The position numbers and the translations under genes are program-made. Under the pieces are notes generated by a model. The model made no database searches. It saw nothing but the letters and a program-made list of their open reading frames with translations, and was not told the origin of the DNA. A stretch of DNA of 54,767 nucleotides, taken from positions 1 through 54,767 of the forward strand of contig JAZODI010000054.1 in the NCBI GenBank assembly GCA_045596965.1, read 5' to 3'. Within the stretch, counting starts at the first letter, position 1. Each line of letters opens with the position of its first letter. Of this stretch, positions 1,379 to 52,636 are shown piece by piece. The stretch is from Eubacteriales bacterium. Its GTDB lineage: Bacteria > Bacillota > Clostridia > Oscillospirales > QAKW01.

Positions 1379-1392
1379 AGGAGAGGTAGACA

Positions 1393-6578: not shown

Positions 6579-6607
6579 AGTATATCATAGTCTGCTTAAT
6601 AAATCAA
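6579..6607 (-). promoter_or_regulatory. SigmaA-type promoter (extended -10) for the GT2/PAP2 genes
   Basis: On the minus strand: TTGATT, 17 nt spacer, TGaTATACT. The -35 overlaps the stop codon of the upstream ATPase gene. Confidence 0.55.
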
Positions 6608-7668: not shown

Positions 7669-7712
7669 ATTATCACCTCCGTTTATCATATGTTTTGATC
7701 CCGTCTTTGTTC

Positions 7713-7742
7713 GCATAAGAAAAGATCAATATGGAGATAATG
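7713..7742 (+). promoter_or_regulatory. Forespore sigmaF/sigmaG-type promoter upstream of sigG
   Basis: GCATA, 15 nt spacer, GGAGATAATG. This fits the remembered sigmaF consensus GYATA-N15-GGnnAnAHTR at every specified position. It lies about 30 nt upstream of the sigG ATG. Confidence 0.6.
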
Positions 7743-15453: not shown

Positions 15454-15909
15454 ATGAAGTGTCCGTTTTGCGGTTGTCCGGAGAGTAAGGTCATCGATTC
15501 CAGACCGACAGACGATGAAGAAAAGATCCGTCGGCGCCGTGAATGCACCAAGTGCAGTAAACGGTTTACAACCTTTGAGGCGATTGAAACCATCCCCCTG
15601 GTTGTGATTAAAAAAGACAAAACACGCGAGCCGTTCTCGAAAGAGAAGATCATGAAGGGTTTGCTCCGCGCTTGTGAAAAGCGCCCGGTCAGCGTGGCAG
15701 AGATGGAAAAAATCGTATCGGATGTTGAATCGGTGCTTTATAATTCCATGGAGAAGGAGATAACAACCCAATATATCGGCGAACTGGTGATGGAGTCTTT
15801 AAAGACCTTGGACGAAGTTTCCTATGTGCGTTATGCCTCGGTGCATCGTCAGTTTAAGGATATTAACTCCTTCTATGAAGAAGTGCTCAAGTTGTTGAAG
15901 AAAGGTTAA
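15454..15909 (+). CDS. nrdR: Transcriptional repressor NrdR
   Basis: MKCPFCG...[12 protein letters not shown] zinc ribbon plus an ATP-cone. The ATG at 15454 is preferred over the track start at 15433. Confidence 0.93.
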
Positions 15910-16451
15910 TGCTCATGAAGCAATGCGTTAATGTTGTTCAGGAAGAATATGATGGTGAGCTTCATTTTTCCATCATCGATCATTCCATCGAACCCGATGC
16001 CTGCGTTATTACTATCGGGGCTATGGATGGAGAAGAATTGATCGGAGTTAAGGTGACGGTTCCGATGCTGACGAAACGGTTGGCTTTTAAGGTGTTTCAG
16101 TTTATTATGCCTTCCGGGCAGGTGAAGTTCTCATCGATTGGGGAGAAGAGTGATCGCTTGATTCAGACTTTGGTGAAATATTTTCACCCCAATTACGAAG
16201 CTTCGGATGGCTTTTCGGAGGATGAGGTAGAAATTGATTATAAACTGCGTAATCAAGCGGGTTATGATCTGAATCGAGATAAGATCTATCTCAAATTGTT
16301 CTATGATGAAGAGCAGGATGAAGATCTGCCCAAAAATGAGCGCATCCACCTGAACATGAGTTTTACCTTTAACCTTTCGCGGGAGTCTGCCAGCCTGATT
16401 GAAACGCAGGAAGGGTATTCTGCCGATTTGGTTGCATTTTTAATGAAATAA
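15909..16451 (+). CDS. Hypothetical acidic protein (180 aa), translationally coupled to nrdR
   Basis: TAATG overlap with the nrdR stop codon. No motif I recognise. A hairpin follows the stop codon. Confidence 0.6.
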   Translation: MLMKQCVNVVQEEYDGELHFSIIDHSIEPDACVITIGAMDGEELIGVKVTVPMLTKRLAFKVFQFIMPSGQVKFSSIGEKSDRLIQTLVKYFHPNYEASDGFSEDEVEIDYKLRNQAGYDLNRDKIYLKLFYDEEQDEDLPKNERIHLNMSFTFNLSRESASLIETQEGYSADLVAFLMK

Positions 16452-20189: not shown

Positions 20190-20192
20190 TTG

Positions 20193-22207: not shown

Positions 22208-22257
22208 AATACTTAATCGGCACGCTTTTGGCTTTTGGAATGAAATGGGTGATAATA

Positions 22258-26250: not shown

Positions 26251-28851
26251 ATGGCAAAGCTTTCTCCGATGATGGAGCAGTTTTTTGAAATTAAGAATCG
26301 CTATAAAGATTATATCCTTTTTTACCGTGTTGGAGATTTTTATGAAATGTTCTTCGACGATGCGGTTACCGCATCGCGGGAACTCCAGCTCACATTGACC
26401 GGCAAGGATTGCGGCATGAGTGAGCGCGCACCGATGTGCGGCGTACCCTTTCATAGTTATGAAAGCTATGCGGCCAAGCTGGTGGCAAACGGATATAAAG
26501 TCGGCATATGCGAGCAGGTAGAAGACCCTAAAAATGCAAAGGGTCTGGTTCGTCGCGACGTTATTAAGGTGATAACCCCCGGAACGGTTACCCAATCGAG
26601 TATGTTGGATGAGGGGCGAAATAATTATCTTGCTTGCCTGATCGGCGGGGAGGACCGCGTTGCATTATGCTTTGCTGATATTTCTACCGGCGATATTGAA
26701 CTGACCGTGCTGGAGCACCCCGATAATAAGGCATTGATCAATGAGATTGGGCGGTTTTCTCCCAGCGAACTGTTGGTCAGCGAGGAGTCTTGCGGCCGTA
26801 AAGAGGTGGCTGATTATGCCAAAGAGCGATTGGGCGCTTTGGTAACCGATCTCGGCCCGATTGAAGAGCAGGATTTTGCGCCCGCCATTTTAAAGCATTT
26901 CCATGTTGTTACCTTGGATGAGTTGGGATTGCCGGACCGCAAAGAGAGTGTTTGCTGTTTATTTTATCTTCTTTCCTATATTTCCGATACCCAAAAGTGT
27001 GATATCGGGTATTTGGATAAGCTTCATGTCTTTTATCCCGAGCAATATATGGAATTGGATGCGGCAACTCGCCGCAATTTGGAATTGACCGAATCCATTC
27101 GTCGGGGTGATAAAAAGGGGACGTTGTTTTCGGTTTTAAATAAAACCAAGACCTCTGCAGGTTCTCGCTTGTTGCGTACATATCTGGAGCGTCCGTTGGT
27201 GCAGATCGGGGAGATCAATCGCCGCCTTTTTGCCGTTGAAGAACTTAAGAGTAATATGATGCTTCGGGATGAACTGCGGGAACTTTTGAGCAAGACCTAT
27301 GACATGGAGCGGTTAATGACCCGCGTAATGCTCAACACCTGCAACGCAAGGGATCTCAATGCTCTTGGGCAGACCTTTGGGATGTTCCCTCAAATTAAAA
27401 ATGTCCTGAAATCCTTCCAGGCCGGGATGCTTTGCGAGGCAGACCGCAACTTATCGGATATGGAAGATCTGCATCAATTGATTGAATCGGCCATTTGCGA
27501 TGAACCTCCCCTTACCATTCGGGAGGGAAATATCATCCGCGATGGCTACGATGCAGAAGTGGATGAATGCCGCACCATGACCAAGGATTCCGAGAAGATC
27601 ATGTTTGATTGGGAAGCCGAGGAACGGGAGCGGACAGGCATTAAATCCCTGAAAATCAGTTATAACAAGGTTTTCGGCTATTATATTGAAGTAACAAAGC
27701 TTTATTATGATCTTGTGCCCGAAACCTATATCCGCAAACAGACCTTGGTGAATTGCGAGCGGTATATTACCGAAGATCTTAAAAATCTGGAAACCAAGAT
27801 CCTATATGCGAATCAGCGGTGCCAAAGCAGGGAGTATGATTTGTTCTGTGATGTGCGGAGCAAGGTCGGCGCGCGGCTGAAGGAGATTCAGCGCGCCGCA
27901 ACTGCGTTGGCAACCTTAGACGTTCTTTGTTCCTTTGCGCAGGTTGCGCAGGAGAACAATTATGCCCATCCGATCGTGGATGAAAGTGATGAGATTCACA
28001 TTGTTGATGGGCGTCATCCCGTTGTTGAGAGCGTGATGAAAAATACGCTGTTTGTTCCCAATGATACCCTTTTGAACCAGAATGATCAGCGGCTTAGCTT
28101 GATAACAGGGCCGAATATGGCAGGTAAATCTACCTATATGCGTCAGGTGGCGGTGATCACTTTAATGGCGCAGATCGGCAGTTTTGTCCCTGCCAAGAGC
28201 GCCCATATTGGTATTGTCGATAAGATCTTTACCCGCGTAGGTGCGTCGGACGATCTCTCTTCGGGCCAGTCTACTTTTATGGTGGAGATGACAGAGGTTG
28301 CTCATATTTTGGATCACGCAACCCCCTCCTCGCTTTTGATTTTTGATGAGATTGGGCGCGGAACTTCTACTTATGACGGCATGAGTATTGCCCGTGCAGT
28401 GATGGAGTATGTCAGCGATGCCAAAAAATTAGGGGCAAAAACTTTGTTTGCAACCCATTACCATGAATTATGTGCGCTGGCGTCACCGGATAATGGGATC
28501 GTGAATTATAATATCGCTGTTAAAAAGCGTGGTGAGGATGTTATTTTCCTGCGCAAGATCATTCCCGGCGGTGCTGACCGAAGCTATGGTATTGAGGTTG
28601 CTGCCTTGGCAGGGGTACGGCCTGAGGTCGTTAAACGCGCTAAGAAAATATTGCAGGAGATTGATAACGGCGGTGTTGCCGTTGCGCCTGTTGCGCCGAA
28701 GGAATATGAGCAAGAGGATCAGATCAGCTTGGGTTATATGGAGCAGTGCGCCATCATTGATCGTTTGAAGGAACTGGATGTTAGCACATTGACTCCTATT
28801 GAAACCATGGGAATCTTATATGAATTAACGCAAAAAGCAAAGGAGCTTTAA
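26251..28851 (+). CDS. mutS: DNA mismatch repair protein MutS
   Basis: N-terminal mismatch-binding motif (FYRVGDFYEMF), Walker A GPNMAGKSTYMRQ, DEIGRGTSTYDG. Confidence 0.97.
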   Translation: MAKLSPMMEQFFEIKNRYKDYILFYRVGDFYEMFFDDAVTASRELQLTLTGKDCGMSERAPMCGVPFHSYESYAAKLVANGYKVGICEQVEDPKNAKGLVRRDVIKVITPGTVTQSSMLDEGRNNYLACLIGGEDRVALCFADISTGDIELTVLEHPDNKALINEIGRFSPSELLVSEESCGRKEVADYAKERLGALVTDLGPIEEQDFAPAILKHFHVVTLDELGLPDRKESVCCLFYLLSYISDTQKCDIGYLDKLHVFYPEQYMELDAATRRNLELTESIRRGDKKGTLFSVLNKTKTSAGSRLLRTYLERPLVQIGEINRRLFAVEELKSNMMLRDELRELLSKTYDMERLMTRVMLNTCNARDLNALGQTFGMFPQIKNVLKSFQAGMLCEADRNLSDMEDLHQLIESAICDEPPLTIREGNIIRDGYDAEVDECRTMTKDSEKIMFDWEAEERERTGIKSLKISYNKVFGYYIEVTKLYYDLVPETYIRKQTLVNCERYITEDLKNLETKILYANQRCQSREYDLFCDVRSKVGARLKEIQRAATALATLDVLCSFAQVAQENNYAHPIVDESDEIHIVDGRHPVVESVMKNTLFVPNDTLLNQNDQRLSLITGPNMAGKSTYMRQVAVITLMAQIGSFVPAKSAHIGIVDKIFTRVGASDDLSSGQSTFMVEMTEVAHILDHATPSSLLIFDEIGRGTSTYDGMSIARAVMEYVSDAKKLGAKTLFATHYHELCALASPDNGIVNYNIAVKKRGEDVIFLRKIIPGGADRSYGIEVAALAGVRPEVVKRAKKILQEIDNGGVAVAPVAPKEYEQEDQISLGYMEQCAIIDRLKELDVSTLTPIETMGILYELTQKAKEL

Positions 28852-28852
28852 G

Positions 28853-30742
28853 ATGCCGAAAATTCAGGTGTTGGATCAGGATATTGCGAATAAAATTGCA
28901 GCCGGCGAGGTGGTAGAGCGCCCCGGCAGTGTGGTAAAGGAACTGGTGGAGAATGCTTTGGATGCCGGTGCCGAGCACATTACGGTTGAGATTAAAAACG
29001 GCGGAATTACCTATATTCGCGTTACCGACGATGGCTGCGGCATGAACTGCCAGGATGCGCGCAACTGTTTTTTGCGCCATGCTACCAGTAAAATTAAAGA
29101 CATATCGGATCTTTATGCTATTGAAACCCTCGGCTTTCGCGGTGAGGCCTTGGCGGCAATTTCCGCCGTTTCACGGATCGAGCTGATTACAGCCAATGAT
29201 GAGGGCGGAACACGCCTGGTTTTACAGGGTGGTAAAGAGATATCCTGCGAGGAGACCGGTGCTCCTAAGGGGACAACCATTATCGTTGAGGACTTATTCT
29301 TTAATACCCCGGCCAGAATGAAATTTTTAAAGACTGATCGTTCGGAGGGCGGTTTTATTGCCGCCTTGATGGACCGCCTGGCCTTATCCAATCCTCAGGT
29401 AGCCTTCAAATTGATTCAGGACGGTAAGGTTACCCTTTCCACCGATGGCGGTGGAAAACTTTTGGACGTGATTTATGCGGTTTTGGGTAAGGATGTAACA
29501 AAAGGGATGCTTCAGGCGGACGCCACTCTTCAGCAGGTGCGCGTCTATGGTTATGTCGGTGAACCGACGATTACGAAAAATAACCGCAATTTCCAGCTTT
29601 GTTATATCAATGGACGTTTAGTCCGCAGCCAGACTGTTTTTGCGGCGATCGATCAGGCATACCGCAATGATTTGTTTCATGGCCGCCATGCGGTCTGCGT
29701 TTTGAAGATTACACTTCCGTATGGGTTGGTGGACGTTAATGTCCATCCCAGCAAGATGGAAGTGAAATTTTCCAATGAAAAACTGATCTTTGAGGCGGTC
29801 TATTATGCCATTAAAGGTGCATTAAATAAACAAACCCTGGTAAAGGCGGAACAACCGAAGAAGGTTGAGCCGATTGTTAAGACAAAACCGATGCCCTTGC
29901 ATAACGAAGGGAAACCAAAGGATGATCCTGCGGTTGTCCGTGTTCTTGAAAAGCCTCAGAATCTTCGCCCTGCTCCGGTGATTGAAAAAGAGGAGCCCAA
30001 GCCGATCGTTTATAAGATGGAATCGAAAGATCCGATCATTTCTCTGCCGAGAAAATCGCCGGCTTCGGGCACCATGGTCTTGCGGGAGATGCCGTTTATT
30101 GATCCCGAGGAAGAGCCCCTCATTAAACCGATTCAACAGGAAATCCAAGCGGAACAACCCAAAAAAGAAATTCCTTACCGCTACATTGGCGAGGTTTTTA
30201 ATACCTACCTTTTGGTAGAAAGCGGCGAGGAGCTTCTTTTGATTGATAAGCACGCCGCTCACGAACGTATGATTTTTGAGCGGCTTTTGAAGGAATGCGC
30301 ATCCAATGAAAATGAGAGCCAGCGCATGCTGGTCCCGGAACGGGTGCGATTATCGCCTGAGGAATTAACCTTTGCGCTGGAAAATAAGGATGCATTTTTC
30401 AAGCTTGGTTTTGATCTGGATGCCTTTGGTGAGCGTCAGATCGTTTTGAGAAGCCGCCCGGTTTGTATCACCAACGAGTCGGCATCGGAAGCCTTTTTGG
30501 AAATTATCAATGACTGGATGCAGGGCGGAAAAACCGATCGGACTGCGCGGGAAAACCGCGCATTGAAGACCATTGCGTGTAAGGCTGCTATCAAGTCGGG
30601 AAACGTAAATAATTCTGAGGAACTAAAGGCGTTGGTGGTTCGCCTGATCGAAGAGGATAAGATCCATCAATGCCCTCATGGAAGACCGATTGCGGTCCCA
30701 TACAGTAGGAAGACGATCGAAAAAGCATTTAAGAGAATTTAG
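28853..30742 (+). CDS. mutL: DNA mismatch repair protein MutL
   Basis: GHKL ATPase motifs (VVKELVENALDAG, DDGCGM, LGFRGEAL) and a C-terminal endonuclease-type domain (DKHAAHER). Confidence 0.95.
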   Translation: MPKIQVLDQDIANKIAAGEVVERPGSVVKELVENALDAGAEHITVEIKNGGITYIRVTDDGCGMNCQDARNCFLRHATSKIKDISDLYAIETLGFRGEALAAISAVSRIELITANDEGGTRLVLQGGKEISCEETGAPKGTTIIVEDLFFNTPARMKFLKTDRSEGGFIAALMDRLALSNPQVAFKLIQDGKVTLSTDGGGKLLDVIYAVLGKDVTKGMLQADATLQQVRVYGYVGEPTITKNNRNFQLCYINGRLVRSQTVFAAIDQAYRNDLFHGRHAVCVLKITLPYGLVDVNVHPSKMEVKFSNEKLIFEAVYYAIKGALNKQTLVKAEQPKKVEPIVKTKPMPLHNEGKPKDDPAVVRVLEKPQNLRPAPVIEKEEPKPIVYKMESKDPIISLPRKSPASGTMVLREMPFIDPEEEPLIKPIQQEIQAEQPKKEIPYRYIGEVFNTYLLVESGEELLLIDKHAAHERMIFERLLKECASNENESQRMLVPERVRLSPEELTFALENKDAFFKLGFDLDAFGERQIVLRSRPVCITNESASEAFLEIINDWMQGGKTDRTARENRALKTIACKAAIKSGNVNNSEELKALVVRLIEEDKIHQCPHGRPIAVPYSRKTIEKAFKRI

Positions 30743-38755: not shown

Positions 38756-39502
38756 GTGAACGCATTGAAATTATCGCGCAAGAAAAAAGAAATGATCGAT
38801 CCCGAACGGTTGCCTGAGCATGTCGGTATTATTATGGACGGCAATGGGCGTTGGGCTCAAAAACGCGGTCTGCCGCGTTATGCGGGTCATGTAGCGGGTG
38901 CGCAGGTTTTTAAAACCATTGCTTATTATGCAAGGGATATCGGTTTGAAAAATCTGACTGTTTATGCGTTCTCCACCGAGAATTGGAGCCGCCCGCAGGA
39001 AGAAGTTTCCAGAATCATGAAGGTTTTGGAAGAATTTATCGATGATGCGCTGAATACCTTTGAAAAGGAAAGGGTGCGGATTCGATTTATCGGCGATCTT
39101 TCTGTTTTCTCCGGCATATTATTGGAGAAAATGGAGCGTATTGTTGATGCAACAAAGGATTTTTCGGGTCTGACATTGAATGTTGCGATGAACTATGGCG
39201 GTCAGCATGAGATCGTTCATGCGGCGCGCAAGGCGGCGGAGCTTGTATCAAAGGGGTTGCTTAAACCCGAAGATATTACGCCGGAAGCGTTTGGAAAAAT
39301 GCTTTATTTTGATGATTGCGAAGCGGTGGATCTTGTTATTCGCCCCAGCGGAGAGAAGCGCCTTTCGAACTTCCTGCTTTGGCAGTCTGCTTACGCGGAG
39401 TTTTGGTATTCGGATATTCTTTGGCCCGATTTTAAGCCGAAGGATCTGGACCAGGCAATTATTGACTATCAAAAAAGGAATAGGAGGTTTGGCGGCGTAT
39501 GA
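38756..39502 (+). CDS. uppS: Undecaprenyl diphosphate synthase (cis-isoprenyl transferase)
   Basis: GIIMDGNGRWA, AFSTENW, RPSGEKRLSNFLLWQSAYAEF. Confidence 0.93.
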   Translation: MNALKLSRKKKEMIDPERLPEHVGIIMDGNGRWAQKRGLPRYAGHVAGAQVFKTIAYYARDIGLKNLTVYAFSTENWSRPQEEVSRIMKVLEEFIDDALNTFEKERVRIRFIGDLSVFSGILLEKMERIVDATKDFSGLTLNVAMNYGGQHEIVHAARKAAELVSKGLLKPEDITPEAFGKMLYFDDCEAVDLVIRPSGEKRLSNFLLWQSAYAEFWYSDILWPDFKPKDLDQAIIDYQKRNRRFGGV

Positions 39503-40353
39503 AAGAAAACTTTTTGCAACGGTTATGGACATCGTTGATCATTCTGGGTGTCTTTATCTTGCTGTTTGCAACATCTGCCTTTTCTCCTTTCTTTGAGATT
39601 GCAATTGCTGCTTTGATCTGCATCTGCATTTATGAAGCACTTACCTGCGCAGGATGCGCCACGAAGAAGAAACTTTTGATCCCCAGCTTGTTTTACGGAG
39701 CGGCGGTGCCACTTTCTTTTTTGATAAGAGATTTCCTATATCCTGAAAGAAACCCTTATTATGGTGTTATTATTATCTCTTTTATTTATCTCGTCTTTTT
39801 GTTTGTTATTTTAATGACAAATTTTGAAAAGACGGTGTTTAGCGAGGCGGCGGTGGCGATGTTTATCACATTTGTTATCACTTGCTTCCTGAGCAACATC
39901 ATTTTTATTCGCCGCATTGAAAACCATGGATTTTTCTTTATGGTTCTCTGTATTGTATGTGGAGCGTGGTGCACCGATATTTTCGCATACCTAACAGGAA
40001 TCCTTTTGGGTCGCCACCGTCCCTTCAAAATCATCAGCCCTAAAAAATCGGTGGAAGGGTGCATTGGCGGCTCCTTATTTTCCATTGGCTTTTTCTTTTT
40101 GTTTTGCTTTATTTATCAGAAGGTTACTCATGTGGGAATGGATTGGTTGCTGGTTTTGGTCTATGGTTTGTGTTGTACCTTGATTGCGCAGATCGGGGAT
40201 CTTTCATTCTCCTACATAAAGCGTTCTTATGGCATTAAGGATTTCGGCAAGATTTTGCCCGGTCATGGCGGATTTTTGGATCGCTTGGATAGTTTGATCT
40301 TTATTGCGCCGATGTTTTATGCATTGTTGAACGCGAAAAGTTTCATTGGGTGA
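39499..40353 (+). CDS. cdsA: Phosphatidate cytidylyltransferase
   Basis: C-terminal signature SYIKRSYGIKDFGKILPGHGGFLDRLDS. Polytopic. ATGA overlap with uppS. Confidence 0.88.
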   Translation: MKENFLQRLWTSLIILGVFILLFATSAFSPFFEIAIAALICICIYEALTCAGCATKKKLLIPSLFYGAAVPLSFLIRDFLYPERNPYYGVIIISFIYLVFLFVILMTNFEKTVFSEAAVAMFITFVITCFLSNIIFIRRIENHGFFFMVLCIVCGAWCTDIFAYLTGILLGRHRPFKIISPKKSVEGCIGGSLFSIGFFFLFCFIYQKVTHVGMDWLLVLVYGLCCTLIAQIGDLSFSYIKRSYGIKDFGKILPGHGGFLDRLDSLIFIAPMFYALLNAKSFIG

Positions 40354-40358
40354 TGATC

Positions 40359-41510
40359 ATGAAAAAAATATCAATTCTCGGCTCGACCGGCTCCATCGGT
40401 ACGCAGACGCTTCAGGTTTGCAGAGATCTCAATATTGGTGTGGCTGCCCTCAGCGCGGGGAGAAATATTGATCTCTTGGAAAGCCAAATTCGTGAATTTA
40501 ATGTTCCTGTTGCCAGCGTATATGATGAAGCGGCGGCGGAAATATTAAGAAAGAGATTAAATGGCTTTCCTTGCACGGTTTATTCCGGAAATGAAGGAAA
40601 TTGTATTGCGGCATCTGCGGCGGAATCCTCTATCGTTGTTACCGCCATGATGGGGATGATTGGTCTAAAACCAACATTGGCTGCCATTGATGCCGGTAAA
40701 GATATCGCGCTTGCGAATAAGGAAACATTGGTTTGCGCCGGCCAGATCGTTATGCCGGCGGCTAAAAAGAGAGGCGTATCGATCCTTCCGGTCGATAGCG
40801 AGCATAGCGCGATCTTTCAATGCTTGCAGGGCGCAGCAGAGAATTCTATTAATAAAATCCTTTTGACCGCTTCCGGCGGGCCGTTCTTTGGCATGAAGAG
40901 CGAGGCATTGAAGAAGGTTACGCTTAGGGATGCCCTAAATCATCCCAATTGGAGTATGGGATCGAAAATTACCATCGATAGTGCCACCTTGATGAATAAA
41001 GGTTTGGAATGGATGGAAGCAAAATGGCTCTTTGATGTTACGGATGATCAGATTGAAGTGGTTGTCCATCGGGAGAGTATTGTTCATTCCGCGGTTGAAT
41101 TTGCCGACCATTCGGTGATTGCCCAGATGGGCGTTCCTTCCATGTATTTGCCTATTAAATACGCGCTGACCTATCCTGCGAGGGTTCAAAGTGGTGATTA
41201 CGCCCTTTCCTTGATTGGAAAGACATTGCATTTTGAGCAGGCGGATGAAGAAACATTCCGTTGCTTAAAGCTTGCAAAGCAAACGAGCCGTGCCGGAGGG
41301 TTATATCCAACTGTTTTGAACGGAGCCAATGAACAGGCGGTTGCTTTATTTCTGGAAAACAAAATCGGATTTGCCGAAATCGCAGATCTTGTCGAAAAAG
41401 CGCTGATGAATGTTCCTGCGGGGGATGCTGAAAAACTCGATGATGTCCTGCGGGCAGATCAAATTGCCAGAGAGCAGGTTCGCATGGATTACAAGAAGGG
41501 TGCTGTTTGA
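40359..41510 (+). CDS. dxr: 1-deoxy-D-xylulose-5-phosphate reductoisomerase
   Basis: ILGSTGSIGTQTL, ALANKE, DSEHSAIFQC, HPNWSMG. Confidence 0.95.
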   Translation: MKKISILGSTGSIGTQTLQVCRDLNIGVAALSAGRNIDLLESQIREFNVPVASVYDEAAAEILRKRLNGFPCTVYSGNEGNCIAASAAESSIVVTAMMGMIGLKPTLAAIDAGKDIALANKETLVCAGQIVMPAAKKRGVSILPVDSEHSAIFQCLQGAAENSINKILLTASGGPFFGMKSEALKKVTLRDALNHPNWSMGSKITIDSATLMNKGLEWMEAKWLFDVTDDQIEVVVHRESIVHSAVEFADHSVIAQMGVPSMYLPIKYALTYPARVQSGDYALSLIGKTLHFEQADEETFRCLKLAKQTSRAGGLYPTVLNGANEQAVALFLENKIGFAEIADLVEKALMNVPAGDAEKLDDVLRADQIAREQVRMDYKKGAV

Positions 41511-42538
41511 TGCGAGTTATTTTCAACATTGTTATAACTATATTGGTTTTTGGCCTGCTGATTCTATCCCATGAGGCAGGCCATTTCTTCACAGCTGTTT
41601 GGGCTAAAATCAAAATTCATGAATTTTCAATCGGCATGGGCCCCGCGTTATTCAAGCGGGAAGGAAAGCTTTGCCGATTTTCTATCCGTGCATTTCCCAT
41701 TGGTGGGTTTGTCCAAATGGAGGGGGAAGACGGTGACTCAACAGATGAGAATTCCTTCGCCAGCAAACCTCGTTGGAAACGATTTTTGGTTTTGATAATG
41801 GGCGCAGCGATGAACATCCTGATGGGTTTTTTATTGATCTGTTGCGTCAATGCTACCATTACGGCCTATCCAACAACGGAGGTCGCGGAGTTTTATTCCG
41901 ACGCTGTTTCTTCTTCTCAACTTCAGCAGGGTGATAAAATCGTTTCGATTGATGGGTATGATATCTTTTCTTATATGGATCTTTCCTATGCCCTTTCCCA
42001 AAAGAGCGAGGATCATACCTTTGATGTTACAGTTATGAGAGGCGGCTCTAAGGTTGAATTATCCAACGTTCCCTTTCCTGTTATTGAAGATGATCAATAC
42101 GGAACATTTCATGATGTAGACTTTAAAGTGTATGGAGAAAAACGAAATGTTATTTCGGTGTTTCGATATTCCGCAGGGTACACGCTCTCGGTGTCTCGCT
42201 CCATCTATTCATCCATTTTCTCGATGTTTTCAGGGAAGGCCGATTTTGATCAGGTGAGTGGTCCTATCGGAACCGCCTCGGCCATAGGAGAAAGTGCTAC
42301 GGTAGGGTTACGTTCGCTTTTAATGATGATTGCGTTTATTTCTATCAATCTGGGGGTTATGAATTTGTTGCCGTTTCCCGCTTTAGATGGTGGGCGGATA
42401 TTATTGCTCGGAATTGAGGCTATTCGCCGTAAGCCGCTTAATCCAAAGGTTGAATCTGCTCTGAACGGCGCAGGACTGATTTTATTATTATGTCTGATGG
42501 TCGTCGTTGCGTTTAAAGATATTATCAATTTATTCTGA
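41510..42538 (+). CDS. rseP: RIP site-2 metalloprotease (M50, RseP/RasP)
   Basis: HEAGHF zinc motif, central PDZ-like segment, NLLPFPALDGG. TGATG overlap with dxr. Confidence 0.88.
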   Translation: MRVIFNIVITILVFGLLILSHEAGHFFTAVWAKIKIHEFSIGMGPALFKREGKLCRFSIRAFPIGGFVQMEGEDGDSTDENSFASKPRWKRFLVLIMGAAMNILMGFLLICCVNATITAYPTTEVAEFYSDAVSSSQLQQGDKIVSIDGYDIFSYMDLSYALSQKSEDHTFDVTVMRGGSKVELSNVPFPVIEDDQYGTFHDVDFKVYGEKRNVISVFRYSAGYTLSVSRSIYSSIFSMFSGKADFDQVSGPIGTASAIGESATVGLRSLLMMIAFISINLGVMNLLPFPALDGGRILLLGIEAIRRKPLNPKVESALNGAGLILLLCLMVVVAFKDIINLF

Positions 42539-42553
42539 AAAAGGGGGATCTGA

Positions 42554-43600
42554 ATGGCTAAAAAAGTTCGTGTTGGCAATTTAGAACTTGGCGGAGATCG
42601 TATTTATGTCCAATCTATGCTGAGTACGCCGGCGGGGGATCATGATGCCGCCTTGGCCCAGGCTATTGCTTTGGAAGAGGCCGGTTGTGATATTTTGCGC
42701 CTCAGTATCCCCAATATGGATTCGATTGAAACCATCCGCAGGCTGAAAAAAACAGTTTCAATGCCTATCGTTGCAGATATTCATTTTGATTATCGTTTGG
42801 CAATTGCCTCGGTTGATGCGGGTGTGGATAAAATTCGCATAAATCCCGGAAATATCGGCTCGGAAGAGAAGGTACGGGCGGTTGTGAATGCTTGCAAGGC
42901 AAAGAATGTGCCCATTCGCATCGGTGTTAACGGTGGTTCGCTGGAGCGTGAATTGCTCGAGCGCTACGGATCGCCTACTCCTGAGGCGATGGTTGAAAGT
43001 GCGATGCGTCATGTTCGCATTCTGGAGCGTTTGGATTTTCATGATATTGTTATTTCCATCAAAAGCTCGGATGTTAAGAAAATGATTGCCGCATATCGTC
43101 TTTTGGCAAAAGTGTGTGATTATCCCTTTCACCTTGGCGTTACCGAAGCGGGAACCAAAGACATGGGCGTTGTTAAAAACGCCATTGGAATCGGAAGCCT
43201 GCTTGCAGAGGGTATCGGATCGACAATCCGCGTTTCTCTTACTGCTGATCCTGTTGAAGAGATCTATGCGGGATTTCGCATCTTAAAGGCGCTGGATCTG
43301 GTGGAGGGCGCTTGTCAGTTGGTTTCTTGCCCCACCTGCGGCCGTACCAAAATTCCTGTTGTTGAAATTGCAGAACGTGTTGAAAAAGCGTTGGAGAAAA
43401 ACCGCAGCGGATTAAAAGTTGCGATCATGGGGTGCGCGGTAAACGGACCCGGTGAAGCGCGGGAAGCGGATGTTGGCATCGCCGGCGGTAACGGCGAGGG
43501 CTTGATTTTTAAAAAGGGTAAGATTATCAAGAAGGTTCCTCAGGGTCAATTGTTTGATGCCTTGATGGATGAAATAAATGAAATGTCAGGGAATAAGTAG
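42554..43600 (+). CDS. ispG: HMBPP synthase IspG (GcpE)
   Basis: TIM-barrel N-domain (VQSM, ADIHFD, RINPGN) and C-terminal CPTCGRT...GCAVNGPGE Fe-S motif. Confidence 0.93.
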   Translation: MAKKVRVGNLELGGDRIYVQSMLSTPAGDHDAALAQAIALEEAGCDILRLSIPNMDSIETIRRLKKTVSMPIVADIHFDYRLAIASVDAGVDKIRINPGNIGSEEKVRAVVNACKAKNVPIRIGVNGGSLERELLERYGSPTPEAMVESAMRHVRILERLDFHDIVISIKSSDVKKMIAAYRLLAKVCDYPFHLGVTEAGTKDMGVVKNAIGIGSLLAEGIGSTIRVSLTADPVEEIYAGFRILKALDLVEGACQLVSCPTCGRTKIPVVEIAERVEKALEKNRSGLKVAIMGCAVNGPGEAREADVGIAGGNGEGLIFKKGKIIKKVPQGQLFDALMDEINEMSGNK

Positions 43601-43601
43601 A

Positions 43602-46600
43602 ATGTCGAACAAATACTTATTGAATTTTTTTAAACGGTGTTCATTCACTGATGAGGAAATCAGTCTTTTCGGTGAATCAATTGCAACAAAGGTTGTTGTT
43701 AACCAGGAACACCGCATTTTGAAGGCACATGCTCAGTTTTCGAAGTATGTGCCTTTTTCCCATATCCTGCAACTCGAAAAGAAGGTTAAAACTTCATATG
43801 ATTTGAGTTTGGTTGAGATCATTCCAAACTTTGAGAATGTTGAACTATCGGTGGATCATTGGGAAGATATTATCGCTTGCGCCAAGCGTAAAAACGGTGG
43901 AGTAAACGGATTTTTGAATGATTCTACCGTTACGGTTAACGGGATGGAATTAACCGTCTCTTTGCAATACGGCGGATTGGATATCATGGAAGCGCTTGGT
44001 GTTGAAAAGACCCTTTTAGAGGTTCTTTTCGAATGGTATCAAAAACGCTATAAAATTGTTTTTACCGGCGCGACTAAAGTGGATGAATCCAATCTGATTG
44101 AAGTTCCTGAGCCGATCTATGAGGAGGCTCCGCCTCCGCCCGAACCTATTGCACCGCCTGCTCCCAAGGAGCCGGTAAAAAGGGAGTGGCGCCGCGCTCC
44201 GGTGGTTACCGAGATGCCGGATATTCCCTTTAAACCTACTGAGAATACCATTCATGGGGATCGGATCGGTAAGAATTTCTATGCCCTTAATAAGGTTAAT
44301 CAGGTGGATGGAACCGTTTCGGTTATGGGCAATATTTTTAAATGCGACAGTCGCACTACTTGGGATCAGAAGAATGTTCGTTTTTCTGTATACATAACCG
44401 ACTACACCGGATCGATCATTTTGAAATTCATGGTACCCGCCGAAAAAGCAGAGGAGTTATCGGGAAAATTAAAGCCCGGTAAAGCTGTTGGTGCAACCGG
44501 CCAAGCGATGTATGATAAATATGAAGAAGACTATGTAATTAACGCCAAATGTGTCTTTGAATCAAAATATACCATTCGCCAGGATTTTGCTGATGAGAAG
44601 CGGGTGGAATTGCATCTGCACACCAATATGTCGGCAATGGATGCGGTAAATACCATCGAGGATTATGTCCGCAGAGCAGCCTATTGGGGCCATAAAGCCA
44701 TCGCGATTACCGACCATGGTAATCTTCAGAATTATCCCGGTGCCCAGGCGGCGGCCAAAGATTGCGGCATTAAAATGATCTATGGTGTTGAGGGTTATCT
44801 GGTGGATGATACCGTTCCGGGATTTGATCCGAAATCTTCCTATAAGCAAAAGGCAACACCGCGGTATCATATTATTCTTTTGGTCCAAAATAAAATTGGA
44901 TTAAAGCATTTATATGAGCTGATTTCTAAATCGAATATTGAACATTTTTATCGTAGACCCTTGATGTTCCGCTCAGAGATCGAACGGCTGCGGGAGGGCT
45001 TAATTATTGGTAGTGCCTGCGAAGCGGGAGAATTGTTCCGTGCGGTGGTTGAAAAGAAGGGGGAAGAGGAGCTACTCAAGATTGCCTCTTTTTATGATTA
45101 TTTGGAGATTCAACCCATCGGGAATAATGCCTATATGCTTCGCAATGGTATGGCTTCGGGCGAAGAGGAACTGCAAGGTTTCAATAAAACGATTGTTCGC
45201 CTTGGCGAGACCCTTAATAAACCCGTTGTTGCCACCTGTGACGTTCATTTTCTGGATGCGCGGGATGAGGTGTTCCGCCGCATCCTGATGGCAGGTAACG
45301 GCTTTGAAGATGCAGATAATCAGCCACCGCTTTATTTGCGAACAACCGAGGAAATGCTGCGTGAATTCGATTATCTGCCCTTCGATGTTGCTCATAAAAT
45401 CGTTGTTGAAAATACAAACATGATTGCGGATATGGTGGAGGAAATCGTCCCCATTCCCTTTGGAATGCACGCGCCCGAGATGGAGGGGGCAGAGGAAGAA
45501 CTGCGCGAATTGGCTTGGAAAACGGCCCATGATATTTATGGCGATCCTTTACCTGAAATTGTCGAAAAACGGCTGGATCGTGAGCTGAATTCCATCATCG
45601 GTAACGGTTATGCCGTTATGTATATGATTGCGCAGAAGTTAGTGAAAAAATCCAATGAAGCAGGCTATTCGGTGGGTTCCCGTGGCTCGGTCGGTTCGTC
45701 CTTTGCGGCATCCATGGTGGGTATTTCGGAGGTTAATCCTTTGCCGCCCCATTATGTTTGCCCTCATTGCAAATACAGCGAGTTTTTCGAAGATGGTTCG
45801 GTAGGTTCAGGATTTGACTTGGAGGATAAAGATTGCCCCCGTTGCGGCAAACCCATGAAGACGGATGGCCATGATATTCCCTTTGAAACCTTTTTGGGAT
45901 TCAAGGGGGATAAGGTTCCGGATATTGATCTGAACTTTTCGGGTGAATATCAGTCCACAGCGCATAAGTATGTTGAAGAATTGTTTGGCGAAGGTTATGT
46001 TTTCAAGGCGGGAACCATTGGCACATTGGCGGACAAAACCGCATATGGCTATGTTAAGAAATACCTTGAAAGCAAAGAAATGAAACTGAATAAAGCGGAA
46101 GAACAGCGATTGGTGGATGGGTGCGTCGGTATTAAGAGAACCACCGGCCAGCATCCTGCAGGAATGGTTGTTATTCCCAAGCAATACAGTGTTTACGATT
46201 TTTGCCCCATCCAACATCCTGCTGATGATCAGGATTCGGATATCCTGACAACCCACTTTGATTTCCATTCTCTTCACGATACCATTCTGAAATTGGATAT
46301 TCTCGGTCACGATGTGCCGACCCTCCTGAAGCATCTGGAGGATCTGACTAACTTGAAATTTGCGGATATTCCGATGAATGATCGCGAGGTTTACAGTTTA
46401 CTTACCAGCCCTGCGGCGCTGGGTGTAACTCCCGAGGAAATTGAGTGCGATACCGGCACATTGGCCCTACCTGAAATGGGCACAAAATTTGTGCGCCAGA
46501 TGATGGTGGAAGCGCGTCCCAAGAATTTTTCGGAATTGTTGCAGATTTCAGGACTTTCCCATGGTACCGATGTTTGGATCGGCAATGCGCAGGATCTGAT

Positions 46601-47354
46601 CCGCGATGGAAAATGTGAGATCAAGGATGTTATTGGGACCCGTGATAATATTATGGTCTATCTCATTCATAAGGGTTTGGAACCGAGCATGGCCTTTAAG
46701 ATCATGGAGATTGTTCGAAAAGGGAAGGCAAAAAAGCAACTTACCGATGAAATGATCGAGGCAATGAAGACTCATGATCTACCTGATTGGTATCTGGATA
46801 GTTGTCTGAAGATCAAATATATGTTCCCCAAAGCCCATGCTGCTGCTTATGTTATGGGCGCAATGCGATTGGGCTATTATAAAATTCATTATCCCAAAGA
46901 ATTTTATTGCGCAACCTTTACCGTTCGTCCTGAAGGCTTTAATGCGGTGGATGTTGCCAAAGGCCCCGATCATCTGCGGAGCGTTATCCGCGGACTGGAG
47001 AATCTGGGGAAAGCTAAAACGGCGAAGGATGATGATACGATCAACACTTATCAGGTTGTTATTGAAGCCATGATGCGCGGTGTACGTTTCCTGCCGGTGG
47101 ATCTCTATAAATCCCAAGCCACCCGCTTCACCATCGAAGAAGAAGGTATTCGGATGCCCTTCAGCGTTATGAATGGGGTGGGGGAAAATGCGGCTTATAA
47201 TATTGTTCGTGCTCGTGATGAAGGGGATTTTCTCTCCCAGGAGGAATTCCGCGTGCGCGCCGGTATTTCCAATACCGTTACAGAATTATTAAACAAAGAA
47301 GGCGTTTTTGGGTCTATTCCCGAGAGTGCACAAATGTCGTTGTTTGATTTTTAA
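43602..47354 (+). CDS. polC: PolC-type DNA polymerase III alpha subunit lacking the internal 3'-5' exonuclease domain
   Basis: PolC N-domain and OB fold; split-PHP motifs (HLHTNMSAMD, AITDHG, GVEGY, HIILL, GSACEAGE, TCDVHF); PolC zinc finger CPHCKY...CPRCG; polymerase core PDIDLNF; C-terminal GVGENAA. About 1250 aa. ATG at 43602 lies 2 nt after the ispG stop codon. Confidence 0.9.
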   Translation: MSNKYLLNFFKRCSFTDEEISLFGESIATKVVVNQEHRILKAHAQFSKYVPFSHILQLEKKVKTSYDLSLVEIIPNFENVELSVDHWEDIIACAKRKNGGVNGFLNDSTVTVNGMELTVSLQYGGLDIMEALGVEKTLLEVLFEWYQKRYKIVFTGATKVDESNLIEVPEPIYEEAPPPPEPIAPPAPKEPVKREWRRAPVVTEMPDIPFKPTENTIHGDRIGKNFYALNKVNQVDGTVSVMGNIFKCDSRTTWDQKNVRFSVYITDYTGSIILKFMVPAEKAEELSGKLKPGKAVGATGQAMYDKYEEDYVINAKCVFESKYTIRQDFADEKRVELHLHTNMSAMDAVNTIEDYVRRAAYWGHKAIAITDHGNLQNYPGAQAAAKDCGIKMIYGVEGYLVDDTVPGFDPKSSYKQKATPRYHIILLVQNKIGLKHLYELISKSNIEHFYRRPLMFRSEIERLREGLIIGSACEAGELFRAVVEKKGEEELLKIASFYDYLEIQPIGNNAYMLRNGMASGEEELQGFNKTIVRLGETLNKPVVATCDVHFLDARDEVFRRILMAGNGFEDADNQPPLYLRTTEEMLREFDYLPFDVAHKIVVENTNMIADMVEEIVPIPFGMHAPEMEGAEEELRELAWKTAHDIYGDPLPEIVEKRLDRELNSIIGNGYAVMYMIAQKLVKKSNEAGYSVGSRGSVGSSFAASMVGISEVNPLPPHYVCPHCKYSEFFEDGSVGSGFDLEDKDCPRCGKPMKTDGHDIPFETFLGFKGDKVPDIDLNFSGEYQSTAHKYVEELFGEGYVFKAGTIGTLADKTAYGYVKKYLESKEMKLNKAEEQRLVDGCVGIKRTTGQHPAGMVVIPKQYSVYDFCPIQHPADDQDSDILTTHFDFHSLHDTILKLDILGHDVPTLLKHLEDLTNLKFADIPMNDREVYSLLTSPAALGVTPEEIECDTGTLALPEMGTKFVRQMMVEARPKNFSELLQISGLSHGTDVWIGNAQDLIRDGKCEIKDVIGTRDNIMVYLIHKGLEPSMAFKIMEIVRKGKAKKQLTDEMIEAMKTHDLPDWYLDSCLKIKYMFPKAHAAAYVMGAMRLGYYKIHYPKEFYCATFTVRPEGFNAVDVAKGPDHLRSVIRGLENLGKAKTAKDDDTINTYQVVIEAMMRGVRFLPVDLYKSQATRFTIEEEGIRMPFSVMNGVGENAAYNIVRARDEGDFLSQEEFRVRAGISNTVTELLNKEGVFGSIPESAQMSLFDF

Positions 47355-49189: not shown

Positions 49190-52100
49190 ATGAACGATTT
49201 TGTCCATCTTCATCTTCATACAGAATATAGCCTTTTAGATGGTGCTTGTCGGATCAACGAGGTGGTTGCTCGGGCCAAGGCCTTGGGTCAGTCTGCCCTG
49301 GCGATAACAGACCATGGCGTTATGTATGGCGCGGTGGATTTTTATAAGGCTTGTAAAAAAGAAGGGATCAAGCCTATCATCGGTTGTGAGATCTATATGG
49401 CGCCCCATGGCCGAAAGGATAAGCAATACGATCTGGATGGAAAATATTACCACCTCATTTTATTGGCTAAGAATAAAATTGGCTACCATAATCTGATCAA
49501 AATCGTTTCGCGCGGATTTACCGAAGGGTTTTATTTTAAGCCGCGGGCGGATTTTGAGCTGTTGGAGCAATATAGTGAGGGATTGATTTGCCTTTCGGGC
49601 TGCATTGCGGGTTCGGTCCAGCAACGTCTGCTTCGGGATGATTATGAGGGCGCTAAAGCGGAAGCGTTGCGCTATCGCGCCATTTTTGGGGATGATTATT
49701 ATCTTGAGTTGCAAAACCATGGATATAAGGAAGATGCGGTGATTCTTCCGAGTTTATTGCGTCTTCATGAAGATACCGGGATTCCCATGGTTGCAACGAA
49801 TGATGCGCATTATATTCAAAAAGAGGATTCATTCACTCAAAAGGTTTTGATGTGTATCCAGATGAATAAGACTCTGGAAGATGATGATGCTCCGGGTTTT
49901 GATACCGAAGAGTTTTATCTTAAAAGCGGTGATGAAATGGCCGCTCTTTTCGCATCATATCCCGGCGCAATTGAGAATACCTTGAAGATTGCAAATGAAT
50001 GCAATTATGATTTCGAATTTGGTCAGTTCCATCTGCCTAAATTTCAACTGCCGGAAGGGGAGGTGGATAGCTTCTCCTATCTGCGTAAACTTTGTTATGC
50101 AGGACTTTTGGAAAAGTATTCATCGGCTACAAAAGAATTGGAAGATCGGCTAAACTACGAACTTGAAACCATTCGAAGCATGGGATATGTTGATTATTTC
50201 TTGATTGTCAGCGATTTTATTGCTTATGCAAAGAATAATGATATCCCTGTTGGACCGGGGCGTGGAAGTGCGGCGGGTTCGTTGGTATCTTATTGCCTGA
50301 GTATTACCGATATCGATCCTATTAAATATGACCTTCTGTTTGAGCGGTTTTTAAATCCGGAGCGGGTGACCATGCCGGATATCGATATCGACTTTTGCTA
50401 TGAAAAACGGAGCCGCGTTATCGATTATGTTATTGAAAAATATGGGGATAACAATGTTGCACAGATCGTTACCTTCGGAACGATGGCTGCTAAACAGGCG
50501 GTTCGAGATGTTGGTCGCGCGATGGGGATTCCTTATGGAGAAGTTGATGCGGTTGCTAAGATGATTCCTTTCCGTTTGGGGATTACTTTGCAAGAGGCAA
50601 TCAACAATGTCCCTACTTTAAAGGAACTTTATGAAACCAACCAAACGGTGCATCGGTTGCTGGATCAAGCTTTGCGGTTGGAAGGCGTTCCTCGCCATAA
50701 TTCAACGCATGCCGCGGGCGTTGTTATAACAGAGAATGAGGTAAGCGATTTTGTTCCCATTTCGTTAAACGGAGATGCCTTTGTTACTCAGTTTCCCATG
50801 ACAACCCTGGAGGAATTGGGCTTGCTCAAGATGGACTTTTTGGGGTTGCGAAATCTTACCATCATTCGGGATACCGAAAAGTTGATCCGCCAGACCAATC
50901 CTGATTTTGATATAAGCAAAATACCATTAGATGATCCCGCTACTTTTAAAACATTGGCAAGTGGCAACACGATTGGTATTTTTCAGATGGAAAGTCCCGG
51001 TATGCGGCAGGTTTTGACCAGACTTAAACCCTCCGAATTTGAGGATATCATCGCGGTGATATCCCTTTATCGTCCCGGCCCGATGGATTCCATCCCGACG
51101 TATATTGAAAACAAAAATAACCCGCAAAAGGTAAAATACTTGACACCTGAATTGGAGCCGATTCTAAAGGTGACCTATGGCTGCATTGTCTATCAGGAGC
51201 AGGTAATGCAGATCGTTCGTTCTTTGGCGGGTTATTCCTATGCCAGAGCGGATCTGGTACGCCGTGCCATGAGCAAAAAGAAGAGCGACGTTATGGAGCG
51301 GGAACGGGAAATCTTCCTGCACGGCTCTCTTGATGAAAACGGAAACGTATTAATTCCCGGAGCGGTACGCAATGGGGTTTCGGAAGCGGCAGCAAATAAA
51401 ATTTTTGATCAGATGATTGATTTTGCAAAATACGCTTTTAATAAATCCCATGCAACCTGCTATGCAAAGGTCGCCTATCAGACAGCATATCTGAAGACCC
51501 ATTATCAGACCGCCTATTTGGCGGCGCTGATGACCAGCGTGATCGGTTCCACTGAAAAGACGGCGGAATATATTGAGGAGTGCAGAAGGCTTGGAATCAA
51601 GGTTCTTCCGCCTCATATCAATAAAAGCCGTTCGCGTTTTCAAGCAACGAAGGATGGAATCATTTACGGGATGCTTGCAATTAAAAATGTTGGCGTAAAG
51701 ATGGTTCATGATATTGTTGCAGAGAGAGATAAAAATGGGGAATATAAAGATTTTGTCGATTTTTGCAGCCGCATTGTGGGAGCGGATATTAATTCTCGAG
51801 CTATTGAAAGCATGATCAAGTGCGGCGTTTTTGATTGCTTTAAATATTCCAGACGACATCTGACAATGGTTCATGAACCCCTTCTCAACAGTATTACGGC
51901 CGAAAAGAAGAACCAAGTGGATGGCCAGATCGGCCTCTTTTCTATGTTGGAGGAGCCTGCGGATGTGGGCGGAAGATTTTTTGCGGATCCTCAGCCGGAA
52001 TTTGAAAAATCGGTCAAACTCGCTTTTGAGAAGGAGCTGATCGGCATTCATTTATCGGATAATCCTTTTGAGCCCTATCGTCATATTTATGCGCGCAAGG

Positions 52101-52636
52101 ATATTTGCAAATTTTCCAAAGTTCTCTCGGATGAAATACCCGACGGAGCTGAGATCTGGTGTTTTGCGCAGATCGATAGTTTTCGGTCAGTCAAAACAAA
52201 AGCCGGAAAAGAAATGGGATATCTTGGGTTATCGGACATCAGCGGAGGGATGGAAGGAATCTTATTTCCAAAGATCTATGCAATGCTTCGGTCGCGGTTA
52301 TCCAAAAATGCAATGGTATTTTTGCGTGGTAAGATTCAAAAGGATGAGCAACGCGGAACAAAACTTTTGATTGAAGAGATCCGCTATCCCAGCGAACGAG
52401 AGTTAAATGAGAAAGTCAAGCGCTTATATTTAAAACTTCCCGGTCAGAATGATCCGTTAACAGAGCGTGTTTTAGAGGTGCTGCGAGATTATGCCGGTGA
52501 TCAAGAGTGTATTTTATATTTCTCGGATACCAAGAAAAGTGTTTCGACATTAAATAAATTTGGTATAACCATCGGAGATGCACTTTTAAAAGAATTAAAA
52601 AAATTGCTTAATGACTCGGAAATTGTAATAAAATAG
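49190..52636 (+). CDS. dnaE: DNA polymerase III alpha subunit, DnaE type
   Basis: PHP domain (HLHLHTEYSLLDGA, ITDHG, GCEIY, ATNDAHY); GPGRGSAAGSLVSYCLSITDIDP; MPDIDIDF; FNKSHA; C-terminal OB fold. Confidence 0.95.
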   Translation: MNDFVHLHLHTEYSLLDGACRINEVVARAKALGQSALAITDHGVMYGAVDFYKACKKEGIKPIIGCEIYMAPHGRKDKQYDLDGKYYHLILLAKNKIGYHNLIKIVSRGFTEGFYFKPRADFELLEQYSEGLICLSGCIAGSVQQRLLRDDYEGAKAEALRYRAIFGDDYYLELQNHGYKEDAVILPSLLRLHEDTGIPMVATNDAHYIQKEDSFTQKVLMCIQMNKTLEDDDAPGFDTEEFYLKSGDEMAALFASYPGAIENTLKIANECNYDFEFGQFHLPKFQLPEGEVDSFSYLRKLCYAGLLEKYSSATKELEDRLNYELETIRSMGYVDYFLIVSDFIAYAKNNDIPVGPGRGSAAGSLVSYCLSITDIDPIKYDLLFERFLNPERVTMPDIDIDFCYEKRSRVIDYVIEKYGDNNVAQIVTFGTMAAKQAVRDVGRAMGIPYGEVDAVAKMIPFRLGITLQEAINNVPTLKELYETNQTVHRLLDQALRLEGVPRHNSTHAAGVVITENEVSDFVPISLNGDAFVTQFPMTTLEELGLLKMDFLGLRNLTIIRDTEKLIRQTNPDFDISKIPLDDPATFKTLASGNTIGIFQMESPGMRQVLTRLKPSEFEDIIAVISLYRPGPMDSIPTYIENKNNPQKVKYLTPELEPILKVTYGCIVYQEQVMQIVRSLAGYSYARADLVRRAMSKKKSDVMEREREIFLHGSLDENGNVLIPGAVRNGVSEAAANKIFDQMIDFAKYAFNKSHATCYAKVAYQTAYLKTHYQTAYLAALMTSVIGSTEKTAEYIEECRRLGIKVLPPHINKSRSRFQATKDGIIYGMLAIKNVGVKMVHDIVAERDKNGEYKDFVDFCSRIVGADINSRAIESMIKCGVFDCFKYSRRHLTMVHEPLLNSITAEKKNQVDGQIGLFSMLEEPADVGGRFFADPQPEFEKSVKLAFEKELIGIHLSDNPFEPYRHIYARKDICKFSKVLSDEIPDGAEIWCFAQIDSFRSVKTKAGKEMGYLGLSDISGGMEGILFPKIYAMLRSRLSKNAMVFLRGKIQKDEQRGTKLLIEEIRYPSERELNEKVKRLYLKLPGQNDPLTERVLEVLRDYAGDQECILYFSDTKKSVSTLNKFGITIGDALLKELKKLLNDSEIVIK

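Follow-up and report, generated by a model that had tools for sequence, protein, structure and literature searches.

PolC is an antibiotic target whose integral DnaQ-type exonuclease counts as one of its defining features. Proofreading by the PHP domain is established for the DnaE1 of Mycobacterium tuberculosis and the DNA polymerase III (Pol III) alpha subunit of Thermus. Timinskas et al. reported in 2014 (NAR) that 6% of PolCs are without the exonuclease (Exo) insertion, that, an additional PolC of a Thermotogae genome aside, these proteins all come from Clostridia and Negativicutes, and that those of Clostridia and Negativicutes are always paired with a DnaE1 and amount to 16% of the PolCs in PolC+DnaE1 systems; the survey still counted them as PolCs, of a minority architecture (PMC3919608). 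According to a 2026 survey, clostridial genomes usually have three "active" proofreaders, namely the PHP domain of PolC, the PHP domain of DnaE1 and the DnaQ domain of PolC (PMC12926913). Here we describe a PolC without the DnaQ-type insert that is encoded on contig JAZODI010000054.1 of an Eubacteriales bacterium (assembly GCA_045596965.1), in a stretch of 54,767 nucleotides that we call the window (54.8 kb). The gene is a new example of a catalogued architecture, from an uncultured, gut-type lineage of Clostridia. A preliminary description of the locus, made from its letters, was unsure whether PolC clades of this kind had been catalogued; they have, since 2014, and the architecture is not new (PMC3919608).

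The exonuclease-less PolCs of the 2014 survey resemble the PolC of the window in domain order (N-terminal domain, OB, uninterrupted PHP, Pol3 and tandem helix-hairpin-helix, (HhH)2), in the retained PHP metal site and in having as partner a DnaE1 whose PHP site is perfect. They differ in origin: the lineage described here consists of uncultured metagenome-assembled genomes (MAGs) labelled "Eubacteriales bacterium" or "Clostridia bacterium" and lies outside the 2014 set, and its loss of the exonuclease is separate from that of the larger exonuclease-less clades labelled Acutalibacteraceae and Ruminococcaceae, its closest PolC relatives being still exonuclease-containing. With canonical PolC (B. 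subtilis, S. aureus; structure 9qpc) our protein shares the catalytic triad, the zinc finger, the HhH module and the clamp motif, and its C-terminal 67% is 60-73% identical to clostridial exonuclease-containing PolCs; what sets it apart is the missing DEDDh insert of about 180 aa (RNase_T, PF00929) between PHP strands and the pairing with DnaE1 instead of DnaE3. The M. tuberculosis DnaE1 and the Thermus alpha subunit have the identical PHP signature HHDHEHCDH and, like our PolC, no integral DnaQ domain, but these are sole DnaE1-type replicases, whereas here the signature is that of a PolC which stands alongside a DnaE1, and PHP exonuclease activity is putative.

A PolC without the DnaQ-type exonuclease

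The polC reading frame is open from position 43578, and its ATG at 43602, which lies 2 nt past the ispG stop, gives a protein of 1250 aa. The open reading frame (ORF) was recovered as the preliminary description had drawn it, with every motif that it quoted in the expected place: HLH at residues 338-340, SAMD at 344-347, TDHG at 370-373 and GVEG at 395-398 and, further on in the translation, YHI at 422-424, GSACE at 470-474 and CDVH at 546-549. The protein scored 1525.7 bits against the NCBIfam equivalog NF001688 (cut-off 873), split into two stretches of which the better one matched residues 414-1249 to profile positions 607-1445. It likewise exceeded the cut-off of TIGR01405 (1387.7 bits against 1043), again in two stretches, with the exonuclease part of the profile skipped. 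At E<=1, the Pfam families found were PolC-NI, OB, PHP, pol3-alpha, finger and HHH_6. By the equivalog models, the Pol3 core with its three catalytic aspartates, the (HhH)2 module and the C-terminal clamp motif, the product of the locus is PolC.

We then compared the functional residues with those of other PolCs. The match to the PolC-specific N-terminal family (PF14480, DNA_pol3_a_NI, residues 9-64) was marginal, with an E of 2.6e-4 and 21.3 bits, slightly below the cut-off of 22. The Pfam PHP family covered residues 336-504 (E 1e-32), and the nine PHP metal ligands, which the preliminary description had judged intact, were all in place with the signature HHDHEHCDH (residues in Table 1); this signature was invariant in 101/101 exonuclease-less and 91/91 exonuclease-containing PolC relatives. 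The polymerase core was matched by PF07733 at residues 633-902 (E 1e-58) and PF17657 at 906-1056 (E 9e-25), and its catalytic aspartate triad was kept in all 192 of the aligned PolCs (192/192). Two CxxC motifs inside the palm, nearly invariant as columns of PolC alignment A1, presumably form the PolC zinc-finger element of the Geobacillus kaustophilus structure. At the protein end, the commonest clamp-site patterns among aligned relatives were all of the type Q[MILV]x[LF]F. Thus the residues predicted to serve polymerisation, clamp binding and PHP metal binding are all conserved.

Against this background, we found that the DnaQ-type domain is gone from this PolC without any relic in the ORF or in the window. 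When 116 full-length homologues were aligned with MAFFT, the protein had a gap of 180 columns after residue 413, a position at which 76 of the 116 carry 157-179 residues. What stands there is the linker that the preliminary description had placed at nt 44811-44867 between the two PHP halves; its location was confirmed, and its length is 19 residues. The absence of an exonuclease from the ORF, as proposed at the outset, held up in each comparison: Pfam gave no match to RNase_T (PF00929) or any other exonuclease family even at E<=1, and regular expressions for the Exo I, II and III strings (FD.ETT, HN..FD, H.A..D) were without match in the protein. Furthermore, six PolC exonuclease domains compared with all six frames of the window by tblastn gave a best E of 0.12, and a custom hidden Markov model (HMM) of the exonuclease domain had no match among window ORFs of >=80 aa. 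A hidden or degenerate exonuclease is ruled out by these uniformly negative results (Pfam at E<=1, motif regular expressions, tblastn, custom HMM). At 44761-44940 the DNA is unremarkable and free of Ns and, with the frame continuous and the catalytic residues kept, the feature is a clean in-frame domain absence and neither a frameshift nor a pseudogene, as had been surmised.

Structural comparison gave a consistent picture. Against PDB entry 3F2B (G. kaustophilus PolC) the protein aligned in one unbroken stretch, residues 237-1249 with chain positions 18-1031 (E=0), whereas the full-length PolC structure 9qpc was matched in two stretches. The G. kaustophilus structure had been named in the preliminary description as a canonical, exonuclease-bearing comparison; it does not serve as one, the 3F2B chain having only a short "lgsgsg" segment at the exonuclease position. 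We take 3F2B to be an engineered, exonuclease-deleted construct that was crystallised with DNA and dGTP. The likeness of 3F2B/3F2C/3F2D to our PolC is the short linker at the same point; the difference is that the construct would be a laboratory deletion and our PolC an evolved product in which the N-terminal domain is retained. An AlphaFold2 (AF2) model of residues 231-700, built from an alignment of 37 sequences, had a mean predicted local distance difference test (pLDDT) score of 84.8, with means of 84 and 71 in the linker blocks (model residues 171-180 and 181-190) and of 95 in block 191-200. The comparison with G. kaustophilus PolC that had been suggested for such a model returned 3f2b_A as the best Foldseek match (E 9e-46, TMq 0.74), and because of this match the model suggests that the PHP barrel closes over the short linker, like that of the crystal construct. 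The model also has a beta-barrel at its residues 8-91, and weak, partial Foldseek matches were to the OB folds of SSB and Stn1 (TMq about 0.15, E about 1e-5).

Relatives, orthology and repeated loss of the domain

The same architecture was found in 23 further protein clusters (90% identity), drawn from independent NCBI, ENA and Logan assemblies, whose members are 71-86% identical to our PolC, 1244-1284 aa long and without PF00929. With so many independent assemblies showing it, an assembly collapse near 44.81 kb, which the preliminary description had named as a possible refutation, is excluded. We also examined 81 related loci, comprising 80 GTDB species-representative loci (L001-L080) and one additional locus (L081). 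An exonuclease-less PolC was present in 66 of the 81, so that the variant is a common one among genomes now on record, and a stand-alone DnaQ beside polC was found in none of the flanks of the 81. Between the polC of the window and those of L001, L003 and L051, the GTDB species representatives of its clade, dN was 0.10-0.12 and dS was saturated (>=1.9), and these values indicate strong purifying selection on polC. An assembly artefact or a pseudogene is ruled out by the continuous frame, the lack of Ns, the 23 clusters and the low dN/dS.

Gene order shows where this polC belongs. The order uppS-cdsA-dxr-rseP-ispG-polC occurred in nearly all of the 81 related loci, exonuclease-less or exonuclease-containing, and polC-murB-whiA-dnaE-pfkA was common to the clade of our PolC (L001, L003, L051) and to exonuclease-containing sisters (L004, L005, L006, L009), a linkage not present in more distant relatives. 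Because it occupies the ancestral slot that exonuclease-containing sisters also use, the gene is the orthologous polC and not an extra copy. The nearest genome records of this PolC were labelled as Eubacteriales, Clostridia, Acutalibacteraceae or Ruminococcaceae MAGs; from these labels we infer a host within Clostridia/Negativicutes, as for the catalogued exonuclease-less PolCs. Labels of the exonuclease-less loci in general named Acutalibacteraceae, Ruminococcaceae, Ruminococcus and Faecalibacterium MAGs, with some "cleanbin" labels being unreliable. Four "cleanbin" MAGs (L033, L035, L041, L053) are labelled Bacteroidaceae, Paludibacteraceae or Muribaculaceae, yet contain a Firmicutes-type uppS-dxr-rseP-ispG-polC order with an exonuclease-less PolC, so that the labels look wrong or the bins contaminated.

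To place the loss, we built a neighbour-joining tree of PolC from 1189 columns with the exonuclease block taken out. The clade of our PolC (24 clusters) was monophyletic in 100/100 bootstraps, and together with 18 exonuclease-containing PolCs (P0027-P0043, P0052, P0064) it formed a clan with 100/100 support, all other exonuclease-less PolCs falling outside. A single ancestral loss behind all exonuclease-less PolCs is rejected for this clade by that clan. When genome loci were added (192 PolCs), the neighbour-joining tree contained eight separate exonuclease-less clans, and Fitch parsimony required some 7-8 changes of exonuclease state in 100/100 bootstrap replicates. These changes point to repeated loss of the domain, since its re-insertion at exactly the same point is implausible. 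The tree thus indicates that the lineage described here lost the exonuclease separately from the other exonuclease-less clades; the safe statement for PolC as a whole would be that there were at least two losses, and probably several.

The linkers themselves may carry some trace of their history. In exonuclease-less PolCs they span 11-33 residues and vary from clan to clan. Within the clade of our PolC they follow the pattern GFD..Y[KR]xK..PRYH, with GFDYRKAPRYH and NFNFRKAPRYH in the deepest members, and look like the C-terminal stretch of the sister PolCs' insert, NFDYKSKDAKRYH; the relatives compared here were P0024, P0025, P0029 and P0030. An FD dipeptide also begins Exo I ("VFDLETTG"). 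This is suggestive of a linker that could stem from a deletion between short repeats (an FD...FD junction), an event too old for a test at the DNA level.

Proofreading in the absence of the insert

Past murB and whiA lies a second Pol III alpha subunit gene, whose product has the Pfam content PHP, pol3-alpha, finger, HHH_6 and OB. It scored 1631.7 bits on NCBIfam NF005298 (cut-off 1260), showed the full set of nine PHP ligands in alignment with the DnaE1 structures of Taq and M. tuberculosis, and had QIGLF within the chain as its clamp motif (residue 913, by regular expression); it is therefore of the DnaE1 type, and is the predicted partner polymerase of a PolC+DnaE1 system. The preliminary description had called PolC the main replicase. 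That label assumes a division of work between PolC and DnaE1 which experiments have yet to assign in clostridial PolC+DnaE1 systems (PMC3919608), and a full DnaE1 with a perfect PHP site lies 1.8 kb away.

We consider it highly probable that the gene is the organism's own orthologous polC, naturally exonuclease-less, intact and selected, with the PHP site as its most likely editor in cis. As in other PolCs, DNA would be polymerised on the beta clamp, and 3'-5' editing in cis would come from the metal-dependent PHP active site, by analogy with the M. tuberculosis DnaE1 and the Thermus Pol III alpha subunit. Fidelity would probably also be backed by the neighbouring DnaE1, with its perfect PHP site, and by MutS/MutL. 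The DnaQ insert of clostridial PolC is apparently one proofreader among three that are redundant, and can therefore be lost. PHP proofreading and a trans-acting DnaQ, the two candidates that the preliminary description had put forward, are sensible ones, and for the specific proposition that the PHP site edits for this PolC in cis, which rests on analogy, we see a roughly even chance.

Several points weigh against this reading. PHP exonuclease activity is a prediction for the PolCs of this lineage, and conservation of the PHP ligands does not discriminate, because exonuclease-containing relatives keep them equally; selection could be maintaining the site for its structure, as a pyrophosphatase or for some other purpose. 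The search for other editors in this genome covered the 54.8-kb window, and a stand-alone DnaQ-like editor or a second polC may lie elsewhere in it. In addition, the deep nodes of a distance-based neighbour-joining tree are not fully reliable and the 7-8 transitions are approximate, the only firmly supported split being that of the clade plus its exonuclease-containing sisters from the rest.

Two alternatives assign the editing elsewhere. In one, a separate DnaQ-like (DEDDh) exonuclease binds PolC or DnaE1 and edits in trans, leaving the PHP domain a structural or other role, which we regard as rather unlikely although precedents exist. Epsilon in E. coli is the model of such editing. Stand-alone DnaQ homologues average >3 per bacterial proteome, the DnaQ domain of B. 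subtilis PolC can edit in trans for DnaE3 (PMC12926913), and clostridial DnaE1s have a conserved putative epsilon-binding surface (PMC3919608). However, neither the window nor the flanks of the 81 loci encode a PolC-exonuclease-like product, no sign of domain fission was seen beside polC, and the short linker closes the PHP insertion point with no evident docking element. The other alternative, raised by Timinskas et al., makes DnaE1 the principal proofreading replicase and the exonuclease-less PolC a reduced or specialised enzyme (one strand, primer hand-off or repair synthesis). Clostridial DnaE1 has all the properties of a self-sufficient replicase, some Clostridia have DnaE1 alone, and exonuclease-less PolCs are all in clostridial genomes (PMC3919608); here the complete DnaE1 close at hand has both a clamp motif and a perfect PHP site. 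We nevertheless find it unlikely, as polC is under strong purifying selection over its full length, its clamp motif is close to consensus and its PHP site intact, and the pattern does not suggest relaxation. Editing in trans is compatible with PHP editing, and neither alternative is mutually exclusive with it.

The remaining alternatives concern the gene itself. It could be an accessory paralogue, with a canonical exonuclease-containing polC elsewhere in the genome, and one clostridial genome with two PolCs and one Thermotogae genome with an additional exonuclease-less copy are indeed on record (PMC3919608). This is very unlikely given that the gene sits in the ispG-polC-murB-whiA-dnaE slot, as does the polC of exonuclease-containing sisters, and that two PolCs occurred in merely one clostridial genome of the 2014 survey, compared with the 16% of PolCs in PolC+DnaE1 systems that are exonuclease-less (PMC3919608). 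Moreover, no whole-genome shotgun (WGS) prefix was shared among L001-L080, so that no species representative yielded two polC loci, which is a weak test. An assembly artefact or a recent inactivating deletion, which only the unusual length of the protein would favour, has a negligible probability: the architecture recurs in independent assemblies, both in the 23 clusters and in the three species representatives of the clade, with dN/dS well below 1 and all catalytic residues kept. The organism's own polC, with the PHP site as its most likely editor, is therefore the reading that we retain.

The window and the meaning of the locus

Coordinates of polC, its parts and the associated genes are collected in Table 1. 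Both mutS and mutL are intact, so mismatch repair is kept although PolC is without a DnaQ editor. Elsewhere the window reads as ordinary clostridial chromosome, with genes for a sigma factor, mecA, cdaA, nrdR, cmk, miaB, miaA and divIVA, further with pyrH, frr-region genes, pfkA and dapA, and with two tRNAs.

Table 1. Coordinates of polC, its domains and motifs, and associated genes in the window
Feature	Position	Strand	Details
polC, PolC-type DNA polymerase III alpha subunit without DnaQ-like exonuclease insert	43602..47354	+	1250 aa + stop
PolC-specific N-terminal domain (about residues 1-165), then proline-rich linker	43602..44096	+	extent approximate
OB-fold region	44310..44567	+	Pfam PF01336 at residues 245-316, E 0.001
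PHP domain, N-terminal half	44607..44810	+	ligands H338, H340, D347, H372, E397
Linker TVPGFDPKSSYKQKATPRY, at the site of the ~180-aa DEDDh exonuclease of canonical PolC	44811..44867	+	19 residues (404-422)
PHP domain, C-terminal half	44868..45401	+	ligands H423, C473, D547, H549
Polymerase core (palm, thumb, fingers)	45498..46769	+	catalytic D774, D776, D899
Two CxxC motifs inside palm	45759..45845	+	CPHC at 720, CPRC at 745; regular expression
Tandem helix-hairpin-helix DNA-binding module	47079..47324	+	PF14579 HHH_6, residues 1160-1241, E 1.2e-13
C-terminal beta-clamp-binding motif QMSLF	47331..47345	+	residue 1244; regular expression
dnaE, DnaE1-type Pol III alpha subunit	49190..52636	+	1148 aa; 1.8 kb downstream of polC, past murB and whiA
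mutS	26251..28851	+	Pfam MutS I-V; adjacent to mutL
mutL	28853..30742	+	Pfam MutL_C, DNA_mis_repair, HATPase_c
uppS-cdsA-dxr-rseP-ispG block marking the orthologous polC slot	38756..43600	+	Pfam

Among the other genes, that of an [FeFe]-hydrogenase large subunit comes after that of a NuoF-like flavoprotein (Complex1_51K, NADH_4Fe-4S) at 14-3150 (+), a pairing typical of the electron-bifurcating hydrogenase operon of a strict anaerobe. At 20190-22163 (+), a single ORF of 657 aa fuses IspH (LytB, residues 4-279) to S1 repeats with an rpsA-like C-terminus; IspH-S1 fusions are known in Clostridia. Between this fusion and miaB lies an ORF of 680 aa (22228-24270, +) with no match in Pfam (E up to 1e-5) or NCBIfam (E up to 1e-3), and an ORF of 180 aa after nrdR (15909-16451, +) had no family match. 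A P-loop protein of 369 aa at 6604-7716 (-) matched only NCBIfam models named "hypothetical protein" (PRK06851 family), below their cut-offs.

Natural PolCs of this kind indicate that the DnaQ editor is dispensable given an intact PHP site, a DnaE1 partner and mismatch repair. The principle was already pointed out in 2014; what our locus adds is a lineage and evidence of recurrent loss, and no new principle, so that the contribution to the case for recurrent, independent exonuclease loss in PolC is a modest one. A broader proposal, which we hold tentatively and somewhat short of an even chance, is that gut Oscillospirales-like Clostridia removed the DnaQ domain from their PolC time and again, each time cleanly (about 7-8 transitions among 192 PolCs, linkers of 11-33 residues, the nine PHP ligands always kept), and that in clostridial PolC+DnaE1 replisomes it would be the PHP domain that proofreads for PolC, with the DnaQ insert redundant and disposable. 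If this is true, exonuclease-less PolCs would be a ready-made natural system for settling the role of PHP in PolC. In any case they offer natural material on PHP proofreading and on the division of labour in the PolC+DnaE1 replisome.

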